From the NCBI GenBank assembly GCA_035649175.1, contig DASRKB010000084.1, positions 9,730 through 73,729 on the forward strand: DNA of 64,000 bases. Direction: 5' to 3'. A model generated the notes under the pieces. That model was not told where the DNA came from, did not search any database, and saw nothing but the letters and a program-made list of their open reading frames with translations. Positions within the stretch are counted from its first letter, which is position 1. Each line of letters begins with the position of its first letter. Source of the stretch: Burkholderiales bacterium (GTDB taxonomy: Bacteria; Pseudomonadota; Gammaproteobacteria; Burkholderiales; SG8-39). The position numbers were made by a program, and so were the translations under genes. This document shows positions 1-57,498 of the stretch, in pieces.

Positions 1-323
1 TCGAAGCAGCGCACCACGTGAGCGATGGCGTCGGTCTCGCGGATGTTGGCGAGGAACTTGTTGCCGAGCCCCTCGCCTTTGGATGCGCCGGCGACCAGGC
101 CGGCGATGTCCACGAATTCGACGACCGCCGGCACGATCTTCTGTGGCCGAGCGATTCCCGCGATGACGCCGAGCCGCGGGTCGGGCACTTCGACGATGCC
201 GACGTTGGGCTCGATGGTGCAGAACGGATAGTTCTCGGCCGCGATGCCGGCCTTGGTGAGCGCGTTGAAGAGCGTCGACTTGCCTACGTTCGGCAGGCCG
301 ACGATGCCGCACTTCAAGCTCAT
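1..323 (-). CDS. ychF: Ribosome-binding ATPase YchF, N-terminal part (gene runs off the left edge of the window)
   Basis: Reverse translation from 323 reads [51 protein letters not shown]..., with a P-loop and the typical YchF N-terminus. Its ATG overlaps the pth stop (ATGA). Not listed as an ORF in the track. Confidence 0.9.
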
Positions 324-50188: not shown

Positions 50189-51117
50189 TGAAAGTCCTCG
50201 TGATGGGCGCGGGCGGCGTCGGCGGTTATTTCGGCGCCCGCCTGCTGCAAGCCGGGTGTGAGGTCATCTTCATCGCCCGCGGCCGGCACTTGGAGGTGCT
50301 GCAGAAGGACGGCCTGACGCTGAAGAGCCCGCTCGGCGATACCAGGATCGCCGTGAAGGCGCTACAGGATCCCGCGCAGGCCGGGAGGGTCGAGGTGGTG
50401 CTTTTCTGCGTGAAGCTATGGGACACCGAGGGCGCCGCCGAGCAGGTTAAGCCCGTGATCGGTCCGGAAACCATCGTGATCCCGTTCCAGAACGGCGTCG
50501 AGTCGATCGAGCGTCTCAGGAAGGTCCTCCCGGAGAAGTGCGTGATGGGCGGCTCGGCCTACATCGGTACTCGCATCGCCTCGCCGGGGGTGATCGAACA
50601 CACGGGCACGATGGCGCGCATCCGCTTCGGCGCGCTCGTGCCGGCGCAGCGCCAGCCCGCAGAGCGCTTCCTCGCCGCTTGCCGCAAGGCAGGCTTTGGC
50701 GCGGAACTCGAGGAGGACATCGTCTCGATCAACTGGGAGAAGTTCATCTTCCTCGTTGCGCTTTCGAGCGCCACTGCGGTGGCGCGCGCGCCGCTTGGCA
50801 TGGTGCGCTCGGATCCCGATCTGCGTTGGCTCTTCGAAGAGGCGATGCGCGAGACCTACCGTCTTGCGCTCGCGAGAAACGCGAAGCTGCCGCCCGACTT
50901 CGTCGACAAGCAGCTCGCCTTCGCCGACTCGCTGCCGGCCGAGATGCGCGCCTCGCTGCTGCACGACCTGCAGGCCGGCGGCAGGCTTGAGGCGCCCTGG
51001 CTCTGCGGCGCAGTGGCGCGCATGTCGCGCGAGGCAGGGCTCGACGCACCAGTGAATCACGCGGTATATGCGGCGCTCAAGCCTTACATCGGTGGATCTG
51101 AAGTCCAAGCTCGCTGA
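50188..51117 (+). CDS. panE: 2-dehydropantoate 2-reductase (ApbA/PanE family)
   Basis: [19 protein letters not shown]...VLFCVKLWDT...NGV...NWEKF...SLLHDLQAGGRLE. ATGA overlap with ahcY. Confidence 0.85.
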   Translation: MKVLVMGAGGVGGYFGARLLQAGCEVIFIARGRHLEVLQKDGLTLKSPLGDTRIAVKALQDPAQAGRVEVVLFCVKLWDTEGAAEQVKPVIGPETIVIPFQNGVESIERLRKVLPEKCVMGGSAYIGTRIASPGVIEHTGTMARIRFGALVPAQRQPAERFLAACRKAGFGAELEEDIVSINWEKFIFLVALSSATAVARAPLGMVRSDPDLRWLFEEAMRETYRLALARNAKLPPDFVDKQLAFADSLPAEMRASLLHDLQAGGRLEAPWLCGAVARMSREAGLDAPVNHAVYAALKPYIGGSEVQAR

Positions 51118-52021
51118 CCCGGCGCAGGGCGTCCTCCTCTACGGCACGACGCCGCCGCGCCTGGGAACCGCCGCCACGGACGTCGACTCGGCGGTGGAGA
51201 AGCTCGCCGCGCGCCTCTCGGGCCTGCCGCTGGACGGCCTGGTGGTCTACGACATCCAGGACGAGACCGGACGCACCGCGACGCCGCGGCCCTTCCCGTT
51301 CTCCGGCACCCTCGACCCGCGCGGCTACGCCGCGGCGCTCGAGCAGCGACTTGGCCTGCCGGCGATCACCTACAAGGCGCTCGGCGAGGCCGACGAGGCG
51401 CAGTGGAGCACGTGGCTTTTCGAGGCAGCGCACCTGCACCGCCTGCGCTTCGTGTCGGTCGTGGGGCGTCCGACCTCCGGAGTGCGCTACGAGCTCACGC
51501 TCTCGCGCGCCATCCGCCTCGCCGCGGCGCACGCCGCCGGCTTCACCGTCGGCGGCGTGGCGATCGCCGAGCGGCATACCGCCGAGCGCAGCGAGTCGGC
51601 GCGGCTCCTCGCGAAGGGCCTGGAGGGCTGCGCATACTTCATCTCGCAGACGGTCTACCATGCGCCGCCGACCGAGCGCCTGCTGGCGGACTACCTGCGC
51701 GACTGCCGCGGCGCGGGGCTCGAGCCTCGGCGTGTAGTGCTCACCTTCGCACCCTGCGGTCGCGAGCGGACGCTCGCCTTCCTGCGTTGGCTCGGCGTCA
51801 ACGTTGCGCCCGAGGCCGAGCGCGCCATCCTGGGCGCCGCCCGGCCGCTAGAAAGATCGATCGAGATCTGCCGCGACAACCTGCGCCGCATCCTCGATCA
51901 TCCGTATGCTGCCCACATCCCGCTCGGGGTGAATGTCGAGAGCGTCTCGATCCACCGCGACGAGATCGACGCGAGCGTCGAGCTCTTCCACGCACTGCGC
52001 GAAGTGCTTGCCGGCCGATGA
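51092..52021 (+). CDS. Divergent methylenetetrahydrofolate-reductase-like protein
   Basis: LLYGTTPPR (compare FEFFPPR), FVSVVGRP (VSVTYGA), GGVAIAERH (AAYPEVHP), AYFISQTVYH (AITQFFFD) and LTFAPCG (IPGILPV) parallel E. coli MetF motifs at low identity. Sits in the position metF occupies after ahcY. The start is GTG 51092 or ATG 51068. Confidence 0.65.
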   Translation: MDLKSKLADPAQGVLLYGTTPPRLGTAATDVDSAVEKLAARLSGLPLDGLVVYDIQDETGRTATPRPFPFSGTLDPRGYAAALEQRLGLPAITYKALGEADEAQWSTWLFEAAHLHRLRFVSVVGRPTSGVRYELTLSRAIRLAAAHAAGFTVGGVAIAERHTAERSESARLLAKGLEGCAYFISQTVYHAPPTERLLADYLRDCRGAGLEPRRVVLTFAPCGRERTLAFLRWLGVNVAPEAERAILGAARPLERSIEICRDNLRRILDHPYAAHIPLGVNVESVSIHRDEIDASVELFHALREVLAGR

Positions 52022-53038: not shown

Positions 53039-53063
53039 AAGATCGGGGTCAGACCCCGATCTT
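53039..53063 (-). terminator. Perfect 12+12 inverted repeat (AAGATCGGGGTC-T-GACCCCGATCTT) followed by a T-run on the minus strand
   Basis: Read directly. It lies 3 nt after the aminotransferase stop and ends 3 nt before the ydjM-like ATG. Confidence 0.5.
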
Positions 53064-53065
53064 AA

Positions 53066-54562
53066 TCAAGCGGCGCGCTTCTTCCGCTGGGCGTCCTTGA
53101 CATGCATCTGCGCGTAGGCGCCGTGCGCCGCGGCCTCGGCATCGCCGACGTGCACCGGCAGCCCCATGTCGGAGAGCACCGAGCCGAGCGCCGAGAGGCA
53201 CAGCATCACGTTGTCCGGGCGGCAGGAATAGCCCATCAGGCCGAAGCGCCAGATCTTGCCCTTCAGCGGCCCGAGCCCGGCGCCGATCTCCAGGCCGAAT
53301 TCGCCCAGCAGACGCTTGCGCACTTCCTCCTCGTTCACGCCCTCGGGGCAGAGCGCGGCGTTCATCTGCGGCAGCTGGGACTGCTCCTTCACCAGGAACT
53401 TGAGCCCCATCGCTTCCAGGCCCGCCTTGAGCGCGATGTGGTGACGCAGGTGCCGCGCCCAGGAGTTCTCCAACCCCTCCTCGCGGATGAGGAGCAGCGC
53501 CTCGTGCAGCGCGAAGAGGGAGTTCGTCGGCGCGGTGTGGTGGTAGGTGCGCGTGCCGGCGTTCCAGTAGCCGAGCAGCAGGTTCATGTCCATGAACCAG
53601 CTGTGGATCTTGTCCGTGCGCGCCTTTACATGCTCCACCACGCGCTCGGAGAACGAGACGGGCGAGAGGCCGGGAGTGCACGACAGGCACTTCTGGCTCG
53701 CGGAGTAGATGGCGTCGATCTCCCACTCGTCGACTTTGACCGGCGAGCCGCCGAGGGAGGTGACTGCGTCGACGATGACGAGCGCATCGTGCTTGTGCGC
53801 AATCTTCGTGAGCTCGCGGGCGTCCGACTGGCAGCCGGTCGAAGTTTCGGCGTGAACGAAGGCGACCACCTTCGCGTCGCGGTTCTTTTTCAGCGCGTCC
53901 TCCAGCTTCTGCGGGTCGACCGGCTCGCCCCACTTGTCCTCCACCACGACCGGCTTGCCGCCGCAGCGGACCGCGTTCTCGAGCATCCGGCCGCCGAAGA
54001 CGCCGTTTTGGCACACGATCACCTTGTCGCCTGGCGCCACCATGTTGACGAAGCAGTACTCCATGCCGACCGATCCGGGGCCGGAGAGCGGGAAGGTGAG
54101 CGAGTTCTTCGTCTGGTAGACATAGCGCAGCAGGCTCTTGAGCTCCTCCATCATCTCTACGAACACCGGGTCGAGGTAGCCAATCGCCGGCTGGCTCATG
54201 GTAGTGAGCACCCGCGGATGGATCTCCGTGGGGCCCGGGCCCATCAGCGTGCGCTGCGGGGGATGGAAGGACTGAATGCGCTTGGCAGGGGCGTAGGTGG
54301 TCATGGTGTCCTCGGAGGAGATCCCGAACGGCGCGTTCTCGGGGCGGGACTTCACGCGCACGGGATTCTTCAGGCTGGCTTCGTTGATGACGTCGATCGC
54401 GCTGATACGGCCCTCGGTGACGCGCTCGACCTCGCCGGCCCAGCGCGCCGGCACGTAGCCGGTCTTGACCCAGTGGTGCACAACCGCCCGGTCGAGCTGG
54501 AAGGCGCGCGCGACTTCCGCTTGGCTGCCGAAGATCTCGACTAGGCGTTCTGCTGAGTTCAT
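53066..54562 (-). CDS. Class V (AGXT/serine-glyoxylate-type) aminotransferase with an in-frame N-terminal Cro/YdaS-like HTH domain
   Basis: Residues 1-62, MNSAERLVEIFGSQAEVARAFQLDRAVVHHWVKTGYVPARWAGEVERVTEGRISAIDV, look like a Cro/YdaS HTH. From Met87 (54304, GAGGA upstream) the sequence is ...LMGPGPTEIHPRVL...HAETSTG...YSASQKCLS (PLP lysine). No stop codon separates the two parts. Confidence 0.85.
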   Translation of the reverse strand: MNSAERLVEIFGSQAEVARAFQLDRAVVHHWVKTGYVPARWAGEVERVTEGRISAIDVINEASLKNPVRVKSRPENAPFGISSEDTMTTYAPAKRIQSFHPPQRTLMGPGPTEIHPRVLTTMSQPAIGYLDPVFVEMMEELKSLLRYVYQTKNSLTFPLSGPGSVGMEYCFVNMVAPGDKVIVCQNGVFGGRMLENAVRCGGKPVVVEDKWGEPVDPQKLEDALKKNRDAKVVAFVHAETSTGCQSDARELTKIAHKHDALVIVDAVTSLGGSPVKVDEWEIDAIYSASQKCLSCTPGLSPVSFSERVVEHVKARTDKIHSWFMDMNLLLGYWNAGTRTYHHTAPTNSLFALHEALLLIREEGLENSWARHLRHHIALKAGLEAMGLKFLVKEQSQLPQMNAALCPEGVNEEEVRKRLLGEFGLEIGAGLGPLKGKIWRFGLMGYSCRPDNVMLCLSALGSVLSDMGLPVHVGDAEAAAHGAYAQMHVKDAQRKKRAA

Positions 54563-54620
54563 GCTTGGCAGGCTAGCATGTCAAACCGCTCTTGACAAAG
54601 AAAACTTCGAACTGGCATTT

Positions 54621-54643
54621 AATGGTACGAAAGACGTACCATT
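54621..54643. promoter_or_regulatory. Perfect inverted repeat AATGGTACG-N5-CGTACCATT, candidate operator
   Basis: Read directly, 5 nt upstream of the antitoxin GTG start. A TTGACA hexamer lies at 54592-54597. Confidence 0.45.
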
Positions 54644-54648
54644 AGCAC

Positions 54649-55053
54649 GTGACGCGAGCGCAACCTTCCAGCGAACCCGATCTGCATTCCCGCGCGAGTC
54701 GTGAGCGCCTTGCGCGCATGGTCGTTCAGCTGCTCGAGCGCTGGAAGCTATCCGCCGTAGACCAGGCCGTGCTGCTCGGCCTGTCGACGAACTCCCGCTC
54801 TACCCTCGCCCGCTACCGGCGCGGCGAGCCGCTCGCCGACAGCCCGGATCTGCTCGCCCGCGCCGGCCACTTGCTCGGCATCCACAAGGCCCTGCGCATC
54901 GTATTTCCGCACGACCTGGATCTCGCGTATCGCTGGGTTAGCGCGCCCAACCGCCGCTTCGGCGCCGAGGCGCCGCTCGCGATCATGAAGCGCTACGGCT
55001 ACGAAGGCATCCTCGCCGTGCGCCGCTACCTCGACTTCGAGCGGGGCCGCTAA
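54649..55053 (+). CDS. Xre/ParS/MbcA-type antitoxin (DUF2384 C-terminal domain)
   Basis: ...AVLLGLSTNSRSTLARYRRGE...AYRWVSAPNRRFGAEAPLAIMKRYGYEGILAVRRYLD. Immediately upstream of a RES-domain gene. Confidence 0.85.
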   Translation: MTRAQPSSEPDLHSRASRERLARMVVQLLERWKLSAVDQAVLLGLSTNSRSTLARYRRGEPLADSPDLLARAGHLLGIHKALRIVFPHDLDLAYRWVSAPNRRFGAEAPLAIMKRYGYEGILAVRRYLDFERGR

Positions 55054-55083: not shown

Positions 55084-55758
55084 GTGGATTTCCACGGCGA
55101 CGTGGTGCGCAACATCAAGGGCATCCGCGTCTCGCAGTCGCTCTTCGACGACCTGTCGCCCGACCCGCGGGACCAGGCGGTCGCGATCGCCGCCGAGAGT
55201 GCGGAGCGCATTCCGACCGAGGCGCCGCTCCTCACCCGGGCCTTCGACTACGGGTCGGTGATTACCTACCCGTTCGTGCCGCACAACTGGCACGCCACGC
55301 GCTGGTCCGACGGCCTCTCCTACGGGGTCTGGTACGGCTCGCTCGCGCTGGAGACGACGGTAGTAGAGACCGTCTACCACTGGCACCGCTTCGTCATGGA
55401 CGCCTTTCCGGCACTCGGCCGAGAGATCACCGGCGAGAGGCGCGTGCTGGACGTGCACTGCGCGGCGATCCTGATCGACCTGCGCCGCGCCGCGGAGCCG
55501 CGTCTCACTGACCGGCGCGACTACGCCTTCCCCCAGGCGCTCGGTCGCCACCTGCACGAGCGCTCGCAGAACGGCGTGCTGTGCCGCTCGGCCCGCTGCG
55601 ACGGCAACAACGCCGCCATCTTCGATCCGCGCTGCCTGTCCGACGTGCGCGACCGCTGCTTCCTGACCTATCGCATGTGGCCATCGAGAGATCACGTCCA
55701 GGTGGAGCGCACCCCCGGTGAGACCTGGCTCGAGATCAACCCGAGCAGCCTGTACTAA
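55084..55758 (+). CDS. RES-domain toxin (ParT/MbcT family, NAD-targeting)
   Basis: ...HATRWSDGLSYGVWYGSLALETTVVE...GVLCRSARCDGNNAAIFDP (Arg, Glu, Ser signature positions). The start could lie up to 9 codons upstream. Confidence 0.85.
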   Translation: MDFHGDVVRNIKGIRVSQSLFDDLSPDPRDQAVAIAAESAERIPTEAPLLTRAFDYGSVITYPFVPHNWHATRWSDGLSYGVWYGSLALETTVVETVYHWHRFVMDAFPALGREITGERRVLDVHCAAILIDLRRAAEPRLTDRRDYAFPQALGRHLHERSQNGVLCRSARCDGNNAAIFDPRCLSDVRDRCFLTYRMWPSRDHVQVERTPGETWLEINPSSLY

Positions 55759-55767
55759 CATGGGGCG

Positions 55768-57498
55768 GTGAAACCCGAAACCATTCGGCTCAAACCCGAA
55801 ACGGCGGCCGAAGCCTGGCTCGCGCTGCTCGCCGCGCGCGGCATCGACTATCTCTTCGCCAACGGCGGAACCGACTTCGCGCCACTCGTCGAGGCGTACG
55901 CCAAGGGACGCAGCCTCGGCTGGCGCCTGCCCGAGATCGTCATCGTGCCGCACGAGAACCTCGGCGTGGCGATGGCGCACGGCTACACCATGCTCACCGG
56001 CCGCCCGCAGGCGATGATGGTGCACGTCGGTGTCGGAACGGCGAACGCGATCAACGGGCTCATCAACGCCGCGCGCACCCATACGCCAATCCTCTTCACC
56101 GCCGGACGCACGCCGATCACCGAGTCGGGCGCGCTGCCCGCGGCGCGCAACAACTACATCCACTGGGCGCAGGAGCACTTCGACCAGGGCGCGATGCTGC
56201 GCGAGTTCATGAAGTGGGACTACGAGTTGCGCCACGCCGAGCAGGTCGAGACCGTGATCGACCGCGCGCTGGCGATCGCCAAGAGCGAGCCTCGGGGGCC
56301 GGTCTACGTCACGTTGCCGAGGGAGATCCTCGCCTCTCCCTTTAGTGGCTCTTTTTCTGAAGCATCGACGATCGTTCCGGCTTCTCCGCCCGCTGCCGAT
56401 CCGGATACGCTGGAAGAAGCGGCGAAGCTCCTCGGGCGAGCTCAGAAGCCGCTCATCATCACCGCCAATGCCGGGCGCACCGTCGAGAGCGCCCGGACGC
56501 TTCGTCTCCTCGCGGAGACGTTCGCCATCCCGGTCATCCACTACCGGCCGCGCATGCTGGCGCTACCCACCGAGCACCCGATGGCCGCGGGCTGGGATCC
56601 ACACACCGCGCTCAAGGACGCCGACGTCGTGCTCGTGGTCGACTGCGACGTGCCCTGGATACCGGCTCAAGGCGGGCCGCAGCCCGATGCGAAGATCGTC
56701 CACGTCGGGCCCGATCCGCTCTTCGCGCGCTATCCGCTGCGCGGCTTCCGCACCGATATCGCGCTCGCCGGCGCGCTCGCCCCGACGTTAGCGGCGCTCT
56801 GCGAGCGCACGCAGAAGCACGCCTCGTCTCCCGCGGCGATCGAGGACCGCAGGAAGGAAACGTCTTCTCGGAATCAAGTTCTGCGCGGGAAGGCGCGGAG
56901 CGGCTTGCAGCCGGCTCCGGGAACCATCACGGGCAAGTGGGCGAGCGCGTGCCTGAACCGCGTCATGGGCGAGGATGCGATCCTCGTGAACGAGTACCCA
57001 GTGGTGCTCGAGGAGGTGACGATCGCCGAGCCGATGCGCTACTTCGGCACGCCGCCTTCCGGCGGTCTCGGTTGGGGAATCGGGGCCGCCCTCGGCGCCA
57101 AGCTCGCCGCGCGCGACAAGACCGTGGTGGCGGCGCTCGGCGACGGCGCGTACATGTTCGGGAATCCGACGCCCGGTCATTTCGTCGGCGAGGCAATGCA
57201 GCTACCGGTCCTGTATATGATCTTCAATAACGCGCGCTGGGCGGCGGTGCACCGCTCGACGCTCGCGACCTACCCCAAAGGCTTCGCTTCAAAGCAAGCC
57301 GCACCGCCCTTCGCGACACTCGAGCCCTCGCCGCGCTTCGAGCACGTCGTGCGGGCTTCCGGCGGACACGGCGAGCGCGTCTCCGAGCCGAAGGACCTGA
57401 TGCCCGCGCTCGAGCGTGCCATGCGCGTGGTGCGCGAGGAGAAGCGCCAAGCGCTCCTCAATGTCTGCCTGGAAGCGAGCTACGTAAAGACCAGCTAG
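55768..57498 (+). CDS. Thiamine-diphosphate-dependent enzyme (acetolactate synthase / sulfoacetaldehyde acetyltransferase-like)
   Basis: GIDYLFANGGTDFAPLVEAY...PHENLGVAMAHGYT...GVGTANAINGL (PYR domain)...GDGAYMFGNP...NN (PP-domain GDG-x24-NN motif). Confidence 0.88.
   Translation: MKPETIRLKPETAAEAWLALLAARGIDYLFANGGTDFAPLVEAYAKGRSLGWRLPEIVIVPHENLGVAMAHGYTMLTGRPQAMMVHVGVGTANAINGLINAARTHTPILFTAGRTPITESGALPAARNNYIHWAQEHFDQGAMLREFMKWDYELRHAEQVETVIDRALAIAKSEPRGPVYVTLPREILASPFSGSFSEASTIVPASPPAADPDTLEEAAKLLGRAQKPLIITANAGRTVESARTLRLLAETFAIPVIHYRPRMLALPTEHPMAAGWDPHTALKDADVVLVVDCDVPWIPAQGGPQPDAKIVHVGPDPLFARYPLRGFRTDIALAGALAPTLAALCERTQKHASSPAAIEDRRKETSSRNQVLRGKARSGLQPAPGTITGKWASACLNRVMGEDAILVNEYPVVLEEVTIAEPMRYFGTPPSGGLGWGIGAALGAKLAARDKTVVAALGDGAYMFGNPTPGHFVGEAMQLPVLYMIFNNARWAAVHRSTLATYPKGFASKQAAPPFATLEPSPRFEHVVRASGGHGERVSEPKDLMPALERAMRVVREEKRQALLNVCLEASYVKTS

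Follow-up and report, generated by a model that had tools for sequence, protein, structure and literature searches.

In a 64-kb stretch of contig DASRKB010000084.1 from a Burkholderiales bacterium (all 64,000 nucleotides of it are called the window hereafter), one gene encodes a protein in which a Cro/YdaS-type helix-turn-helix (HTH) domain is fused in frame to a class-V aminotransferase of the AGXT family. The fusion is a conserved, abundant gene in uncultured soil Burkholderiales, and the comparison of related loci ties a conserved palindrome and a promoter to it. We estimate a probability of roughly 0.65 that the dimeric enzyme acts as an autorepressor by virtue of a domesticated phage Cro, which would have kept its promoter and operator. 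The fusion as such had been recognised by a model that saw only the letters of the DNA (the sequence-only reading); that reading did not cover the minus-strand location, the conservation of an operator and a promoter, the probable leaderless start or the commonness of the gene in public metagenomes.

The 498-codon open reading frame (ORF) that had been described at 53066–54562, with no stop codon separating its two parts, is present exactly so in the list of ORFs, on the minus strand (Table 1). Its N-terminus had been read as a Cro/YdaS HTH and the remainder, from Met87 onwards, as a complete AGXT-type aminotransferase, and both assignments hold up. PF15943 (YdaS_toxin) matches residues 6–54 with 33.5 bits in the whole protein and with 37.2 bits when residues 1–90 are profiled separately, that is above the gathering score of 30, and PF14549 (P22_Cro) stays slightly under its cut-off of 30.2 with 25–29 bits. 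In the C-terminal part, Pfam finds PF00266 (Aminotran_5) on residues 135–429 with 79 bits, and solved AGXT-family enzymes align from query residues 92–105 to 463–483. Since AGXT homology starts at residues 92–105, Met87 lies at the position where stand-alone enzymes begin. The GAGGA motif that had been noticed before Met87 was located as well, and the upstream region of 86 bp was confirmed as the spacer separating the fusion ATG (54562) from the start of a divergent Xre antitoxin gene (54649).

Structure prediction supports the assignment of the N-terminal domain. The AlphaFold2 model of residues 1–90, based on 86 diverse relatives, has a pLDDT (predicted local distance difference test) of 90.9 and consists of five helices. 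Foldseek returned the Cro protein of Xfaso-1 as the nearest fold in the PDB (3bd1; template modelling (TM) score 0.82–0.85, root-mean-square deviation 1.3 Å), with N15 Cro (2hin and 6on0, including a DNA complex) and P22 Cro (1rzs) as further neighbours at probabilities of 0.99–1.0. The domain displays two features of the Cro/YdaS family: the profile score is above threshold, and the fold is the five-helix all-alpha repressor fold with helices 2 and 3 forming the HTH. PHROGs also places the HTH among phage transcriptional regulators. A prophage-immunity setting beside a CI-type repressor is not found here, as the domain is fused, its context is chromosomal and there is no CI-like neighbour. 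Residues 4–51 (54410–54553, minus strand) additionally match NCBIfam NF046037, the ‘carph-isopro domain’, with 33.6 bits, which is below the cut-off of 38; no paper using this name was found in the literature.

The architecture had been proposed for a database search, and it recurs throughout. Among 5.8 billion proteins searched, 120 clusters at 85–94% identity were listed, and the fusion is found in all 120 of them, with a query coverage of about 100% (95–100%) and essentially always with both Pfam domains. The listed clusters are 491–612 amino acids (aa) long, all but three of them 496–516 aa, some contain several hundred member sequences, and public records label the protein by its aminotransferase part only. 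A genome scan using one genome per species yielded 591 matching stretches, of which the best 80 were fetched as loci L001–L080; comparisons of 81 sequences refer to the window together with these loci. The best 80 loci all derive from metagenome-assembled genomes of uncultured Burkholderiales or Betaproteobacteria. In each of them the gene reads through without interruption, and its start codon sits at a constant position (57 ATG, 16 GTG and 7 beginning a few codons upstream), and the more divergent relative P0138/L084 (503 aa) has the identical architecture among different neighbours. Split orthologues, which according to the sequence-only reading would suggest a sequencing error or a recent stop loss, were looked for; two genes parted by a stop codon were not found in any of the 80 loci, and neither of these explanations is supported.

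Selection acts on both parts of the protein. The pairwise ratio of nonsynonymous to synonymous substitution rates (dN/dS) amounts to 0.129 for the HTH, 0.168 for residues 56–74 (the tail), 0.183 for the linker and 0.138 for the enzyme, with a dS of 0.5–0.65 in the coding region and a dS of 1.56 and a dN of 0.29 in the linker. The recognition helix is almost invariant, and R25, A26, V27, W31 and K33 within it are strictly so. Because the open frame is kept and the dN/dS values are similar, the alignments indicate that the N-terminal domain is translated in this frame and is under purifying selection as strong as that acting on the enzyme. We are accordingly close to certain, on these comparative grounds, that the fusion is a real gene and neither a sequencing error nor a recent stop loss. 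Elsewhere in the gene, codons 317–325 (DKIHSWFMD; 53588–53614, minus strand) show the lowest synonymous diversity of all (ratio 0.12 vs a mean of 0.75 in 81 species), which may reflect an overlapping constraint or merely extreme codon bias on two-fold-degenerate residues.

To trace the origin of the domain, residues 1–86 were searched against 1.84 billion cluster representatives. Above ~55% identity, the matches represent this same fusion, whole or in fragments, including the divergent subclade P0138; at or below 50% identity they are stand-alone proteins of 60–90 aa, and those examined sit among small uncharacterised genes on phage-like contigs. One of them, the 84-aa protein P0173, ends in LKNPPRFKTRPSN followed by its stop, which is the same basic tail as residues 64–76 of the fusion. 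Within the 81 sequences, residues 67–74 (PVRVKSRP) of this tail are invariant, and residues 77–86 vary in sequence and length. Residues 64–76 thus match the C-terminal tail of stand-alone Cro-like relatives and appear to mark the end of the ancestral cro gene, and linker residues 77–86 are probably a former intergenic spacer. The simplest history is loss of the cro stop codon upstream of the aminotransferase gene: a cro-like gene, along with its promoter/operator, would have been placed immediately in front of the latter gene and would then have lost its stop codon. The former cro tail would end near residue 76, residues 77–86 would represent the old spacer with remnants of a ribosome-binding site, and Met87 would be the old start. 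A further observation of this search concerns P0168, a metagenomic protein of 661 aa with seven near-identical tandem repeats of ~90 residues, each containing an HTH-like unit, which weakly matches the Cro domain.

The DNA in front of the fusion gene is highly conserved in one short segment. In the upstream alignment, TTGTCAA-N7-TTGAC(A) is invariant and fixed in spacing in 80 of 80 usable loci; its core is the inverted repeat TGTCAA-N7-TTGACA. The half-sites carry 2.0 bits per position as compared to 0.1–0.3 bits in the flanks, and the centre occurs in 67 distinct versions. A test for complementary covariation within the centre revealed none, which disfavours a hairpin role of the palindrome. 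Invariant half-sites around a variable centre are the pattern expected of the operator of a dimeric protein. A promoter appears to be interwoven with this candidate operator. The T at 54598, just outside the palindrome, is invariant in 80/80 loci, and a TA[G/A]aCT hexamer begins three bases past the right half-site, with its positions 1, 2 and 6 (T, A and T) kept in 78–79 of 80, resulting in a spacer of exactly 17 nucleotides (nt) between the -35 and -10 elements. It is this cross-species conservation on which the promoter assignment is based. The right half-site has no plausible -10 partner in the sequence, and therefore a promoter role fails to explain its conservation.

The distribution of the candidate operator follows that of the gene. 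It is unique in the window (54579–54598), and in ~0.8 Mb of related DNA each locus has a single copy. It is kept when a divergent thiamine-pyrophosphate (TPP) enzyme gene lies upstream (37 loci), when an Xre-RES module does (13 loci and the window) and when other genes do, including one for dCTP deaminase. The palindrome is also present in the divergent relatives L084, whose neighbours differ, L085 and L086; in the latter two it accompanies the same type of HTH in an ORF that lacks the enzyme part, both contigs being short and of uncertain quality. Upstream of the stand-alone Cro-like relatives L081 and L083, the TTGTCAA palindrome is absent and ordinary leaders containing a Shine-Dalgarno (SD) sequence are found, and by this comparison the operator appears to be specific to the fused clade. 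A phage source of the operator was also sought on viral contigs, and none was found: at least 120 matches to TTGTCAAANNNNNTTTGACA occur on viral contigs, none of them near a relative of the HTH as judged by tblastn, and they are regarded as chance matches. Two of these viral contigs (L091, 8233–8946, and L093, 6120–6833) carry three copies of TTGTCAAANNNNNTTTGACA spaced 459 and 234 bp apart, likewise with no HTH relative nearby, which looks like an unrelated repeat.

The position of the promoter relative to the gene also bears on translation initiation. In 70 of 80 loci, the start codon lies 5–10 nt past the -10 hexamer, and loci with a short N-terminal extension hold the distance between the -10 element and the start by using an upstream ATG or GTG. 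As this leaves no room for an SD sequence, a leaderless or nearly leaderless mRNA is predicted for the full-length fusion. A similar geometry is seen for the divergent upstream genes, which have TAnnnT 5–9 nt before their ATG in 27 of 43 loci, as compared to 3.4 expected from shuffles. This suggests that leaderless expression may be common in this lineage.

A second candidate start is located within the fusion. Methionine at position 87 is retained in 81/81 sequences (displaced by 1–3 residues in two of them), inside the variable linker. Pairing with the anti-SD sequence ahead of Met87 reaches -6 kcal/mol or lower in 55% of the 81 sequences, as compared to 19% of control positions, and the codon preceding E84 ends in A in 25% of cases as compared to 4% overall, which adds to a purine-rich region. 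Moreover, along the whole mRNA structure is weakest at codons 87–98, with -3 to -5 kcal/mol in 45-nt windows (gene-wide mean -12.9, standard deviation 3.4). The Met87 region is also less structured than expected from shuffles of synonymous codons, with a mean z of +2.2 at the top of 20 positions; codons 92 and 100 reach +1.7 and +1.0, and the remaining positions lie between -1.3 and +0.6. Such features typically mark translation-initiation regions; they make an enzyme-only isoform plausible and lend indirect support to the two products considered in the sequence-only reading. Suppressed synonymous variation, which could reveal an internal promoter in the HTH coding region, was sought in codons 1–110 and none was found.

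The aminotransferase part apparently is catalytically intact, as judged from its conserved residues. It matches alanine-glyoxylate aminotransferase (AGT) of Nostoc (1vjo, E = 4e-100, residues 96–463), PucG (3isl, 1e-88), UGXT (3nnk, 4e-82) and human AGT in the PDB. The lysine that binds pyridoxal 5'-phosphate (PLP), K291 in the SQK motif (codon 53690–53692), is kept in 80/81 sequences, and D265, the aspartate binding the pyridine nitrogen, in 81/81; homology to solved enzymes over the full length and these two residues bear out the earlier description of a complete AGXT-type enzyme. The best match is to class V, Aminotran_1_2 giving merely a partial match of 25 bits on residues 124–266. No equivalog threshold of NCBIfam, and thus no substrate-specific group of orthologues, was reached: BhcA scored 209 bits vs the required 650, pyridoxamine-pyruvate transaminase 198 vs 600 and PhnW 182 vs 361. 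The best relatives on plasmids, identified by tblastn, are about 51% identical over residues 93/96–473 only, and none of these plasmid-borne relatives from cultured bacteria carries an HTH. The protein also possesses a conserved basic C-terminal tail, KDAQRKKRAA (residues 489–498; 53066–53098, minus strand), in which A491 and K494 are invariant and which is absent from solved AGXT relatives; a long helix is predicted over residues 472–497.

These elements can be combined into a mechanism. Transcription would proceed from the gene's own promoter (-35 TTGTCA, 17-nt spacer, -10 TAnnnT) and begin on the start codon itself or only a few bases away from it. The HTH with its tail would be tethered to the aminotransferase via a variable linker of 10–20 residues. 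AGXT enzymes are obligate homodimers, and the enzyme homodimer would bring along two HTH domains, which would bind the two half-sites of TGTCAA-N7-TTGACA. The palindrome spans the predicted -35 element and the spacer, so that binding would block RNA polymerase, leading to negative autoregulation. Ribosomes probably would also initiate at Met87, generating an isoform that consists of the enzyme without the HTH. Cro proteins of this fold dimerise weakly (N15 Cro, dissociation constant 3–5 µM) or, in the absence of DNA, not at all (P22 Cro), and their apparent affinity for DNA depends on dimerisation (PMC6649833). Fusion of such a weakly dimerising Cro to an obligate AGXT dimer would therefore give a constitutive two-headed repressor. 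Binding to operators that overlap their own promoter is a known property of YdaS-family proteins, which are Cro analogues (PMC8630535). For the fusion itself, the analyses establish the joined gene and its conservation, selection on both parts, the Cro fold, the intact catalytic residues and the palindrome and promoter that go with the gene; we infer that the HTH binds DNA and represses, where transcription begins, that ribosomes initiate internally and that a substrate or the cofactor might exert control.

A more elaborate version of this scheme, which we regard as doubtful, is a self-contained device for metabolic feedback built from a phage part. The leaderless mRNA would yield scarce full-length Cro-enzyme and abundant Met87 isoform, only full-length dimers would repress, and the ratio of the isoforms, possibly together with the PLP/pyridoxamine 5'-phosphate (PMP) or substrate state, would set transcription. 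If true, the protein would be the first example of a one-component sensor-repressor that is also a catalytically active class-V aminotransferase, and the locus would clearly illustrate the co-option of a phage cro along with its promoter and operator.

Several observations weigh against autorepression by the fusion as outlined above, or against single steps of it. The promoter of the window matches only 8 of 12 consensus positions, and a simple promoter scanner gave no call. As half-sites and recognition helix are both almost invariant, covariation between protein and DNA is uninformative. The centres of the half-sites are 13 bp apart, that is more than one helical turn, a distance that compact Cro dimers do not usually span and that calls for flexible tethers. 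Further copies of the operator, representing a regulon or sites of another regulator, may exist outside the scanned DNA. As to the leaderless start, about a quarter of the loci begin with GTG, a poor leaderless start in E. coli, and about ten loci have a leader of 17–31 nt with no obvious SD sequence. Internal initiation is called into question by about ten loci that lack an SD-like motif before Met87 and by the use of GAG at E84, which as a test for SD selection revealed no difference (85% vs a background of 77%). Finally, the full-length AlphaFold2 model built from 50 close homologues has a mean pLDDT of 64, with values below 50 for residues 67–164, and is confident for the HTH alone. At such a low pLDDT, it was dropped as a source of domain geometry and for fold searches.

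We weighed these points along with other explanations of the locus. That an artefact or a very recent stop loss joined a small cro-like gene to an aminotransferase gene has a negligible probability. The parts do seem to have been separate genes once, as indicated by Met87 with its SD-like motif and by the cro tail ending near residue 76, but the same open frame in 120/120 listed clusters, 80/80 loci and a divergent relative, from many independent assemblies, and a dN/dS of 0.13 for the HTH speak against a recent accident, and the comparative data already refute it. It is also very unlikely that the enzyme made from Met87 is the sole functional product, with the 86 upstream codons being a translated leader or relic that has no role in DNA binding. 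Under such a scenario, purifying selection on the HTH would not be expected to equal that on the enzyme, nor would one expect an invariant recognition helix, a confidently predicted Cro fold and a start codon at a fixed distance from the promoter. These features have to be set against the invariable presence of Met87, the enrichment of SD-like motifs and the unstructured mRNA at this position, and against the possible inefficiency of leaderless starts, GTG in particular, all of which would fit an enzyme-only product.

In two further alternatives, one half of the protein acts differently. The palindrome could be the site of another, trans-acting regulator or consist of two unrelated promoter elements, in which case the fused HTH would act elsewhere, through distant targets or protein-protein contacts. 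The link between HTH and site is indeed indirect; both are invariant, the operator scans covered the window and the related loci, and many viral contigs without a related HTH contain the pattern by chance. Nonetheless, we consider this explanation unlikely: the site is found with the gene in no fewer than three genomic contexts while occurring once per locus in ~0.8 Mb, it accompanies the same type of HTH without the enzyme on L085 and L086 (with the reservation made above for these contigs), its symmetric invariant half-sites and variable centre fit a dimeric HTH protein, and autorepression is known behaviour of Cro/YdaS proteins. Slightly less probable again is a MocR-like arrangement, in which the protein is primarily a transcription factor and the aminotransferase part mainly a sensor for a ligand. 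MocR/GabR/PdxR provide a precedent, and the failure to reach any equivalog threshold would be compatible with it. Nevertheless, an identity of about 50% to annotated AGXT-family genes, the E value of 4e-100 against 1vjo, the retention of K291 and D265 and a dN/dS of 0.14 along the entire enzyme part argue for catalysis, and the indications of an isoform lacking the HTH are easiest to understand if the protein is a genuine enzyme. On balance, we therefore favour autorepression by a Cro-enzyme fusion.

The remaining features of the locus are compiled in Table 1. Between the fusion gene and ydjM, which lies downstream behind a hairpin in 58 of 80 loci, comparably strong hairpins of the AATCGGGGTCAGACCCCGATT or AAATGGGGACAGTCCCCATTT type are present in most of L001–L080, abutting the ydjM start and often followed by a T run; they look like terminators or a REP-like (repetitive extragenic palindromic) repeat family. 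On the other side, 13/80 loci have the Xre-RES module, with GTAC-rich repeats, as an insertion that separates the TPP-enzyme gene from the fusion promoter, and the TTGTCAA operator is intact each time. A TPP enzyme of the PRK08327 type is divergent to the fusion in 37/80 loci, sometimes only ~60 bp away, and owing to this proximity the operator could also affect the TPP-enzyme gene. The neighbouring genes are uninformative as to the substrate of the aminotransferase. Further away, a 317-aa ORF (51068–52021, plus strand) has no NCBIfam match and overlaps the end of a 2-dehydropantoate reductase gene by 50 nt; it is conserved at 66–72% identity in nine related loci, with partial matches at contig ends in four more.

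Table 1. Features of the fusion gene, its control region and its neighbourhood (positions refer to the window).
Feature	Position	Strand	Description
Full fusion ORF	53066..54562	-	498 aa; ATG start at 54562; zero internal stops; HTH, basic tail, linker and AGXT-family aminotransferase
Cro-type all-alpha HTH domain	54368..54562	-	Residues 1-65; PF15943, AlphaFold2, Foldseek
HTH helices	Residues 3-11, 14-21, 25-34, 39-48, 55-65		AlphaFold2; recognition helix RAVVHHWVKT, residues 25-34
Conserved basic tail LKNPVRVKSRPEN	54335..54373	-	Residues 64-76
Variable linker	54305..54334	-	Residues 77-86; indels and substitutions in the alignment
GAGGA, SD-like, in tccGAGGAcaccATG	54309..54313	-	4 nt upstream of the Met87 codon
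Met87 codon	54302..54304	-	Candidate internal start; presumed ancestral start of the enzyme
AGXT-family (class-V, fold-type I) aminotransferase	53066..54304	-	Residues 87-498
Candidate operator, 19-bp palindrome TGTCAAgagcggtTTGACA	54579..54597	-	Two invariant 6-bp half-sites, variable 7-bp centre
Predicted -35 hexamer TTGTCA	54593..54598	-	Overlaps the left half-site; inferred
Predicted -10 hexamer TAGCCT	54570..54575	-	7 nt before ATG; TAGACT, TAGAAT or TAAACT in relatives
Hairpin AGATCGGGGT-ctg-ACCCCGATCT followed by tttc	53040..53062	-	Between the fusion stop codon and the ydjM start; -19.8 kcal/mol
Xre/ParS-type antitoxin gene	54649-55053	+	Divergent to the fusion; type II toxin-antitoxin pair
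RES-domain toxin gene	55084-55758	+	Type II toxin-antitoxin pair
Perfect palindrome TAATGGTACG-n5-CGTACCATTA	54620-54644		At the antitoxin start
TPP enzyme gene	55768-57498	+	Uncharacterised PRK08327 group; 684 bits
Divergent-gene TAnnnT geometry	200 nt upstream of the fusion gene		L005, L007, L009, L015, L020, L021, L039, L045, L046, L053 and other loci

The fusion resembles several known systems in part. With MocR/GabR/PdxR, whose aminotransferase-like domain senses PLP-bound effectors, it shares the order of an N-terminal DNA-binding domain, a linker and a dimeric PLP-fold domain, as well as operators in the controlled promoters. In contrast to these regulators, its HTH is of the all-alpha Cro/YdaS type with no match to the GntR winged helix in Pfam, its PLP part is of class V and apparently catalytically intact, whereas that of MocR is a class-I sensor domain, and its candidate operator is a compact 19-bp inverted repeat. 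The trigger enzymes PutA (ribbon-helix-helix and proline dehydrogenase), BirA (winged HTH and biotin ligase), NadR (HTH and nicotinamide mononucleotide adenylyltransferase) and archaeal RbkR also combine an active enzyme with a DNA-binding domain that represses own or pathway genes, but differ in DNA-binding fold, enzyme class and pathway. In proteins of the PutA/BirA/NadR type, DNA binding is controlled by a ligand or by the catalytic state; by analogy, such control of DNA binding by the fusion is a conjecture. The Cro proteins of P22, N15 and Xfaso-1 and YdaS of the Rac and CP-933P prophages belong to the same fold and hidden Markov model family and have a palindromic site overlapping their own promoter. 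These are stand-alone proteins of 60–100 aa encoded in prophage immunity regions, with a CI-type neighbour and several operators, whereas the fusion has a single operator, lacks a CI partner, lies in a chromosomal metabolic context and carries a covalently attached enzyme of 412 aa. The AGXT enzymes, that is Nostoc 1vjo, B. subtilis PucG, Klebsiella HpxJ and human AGT, are homologous over the whole enzyme part and share the PLP lysine and the aspartate; none of the solved or plasmid-borne relatives has an N-terminal HTH, and the fusion adds the basic C-terminal extension.

Taken together, the locus appears to belong to the bifunctional enzyme-repressors, which combine a DNA-binding domain with an intact catalytic domain, its operator being deduced from conservation. 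The sequence-only reading knew of no Cro-like HTH on a class-V enzyme, and this agrees with our finding that the literature searched for this architecture contains no description of a Cro/YdaS-aminotransferase fusion. The regulatory half of the protein goes unnoted in public records. The operator, the promoter-to-start geometry and the candidate internal start represent precise hypotheses, and the system could find use as a compact expression part that regulates itself and could illustrate in detail how prophage regulators become domesticated. Enzyme-repressors tie metabolism directly to gene expression and few architectures are known, such as PutA, BirA, NadR and the MocR type. The fusion would add another one, in which a Cro module of phage origin, apparently taken over along with promoter and operator, resides on an apparently active class-V aminotransferase.

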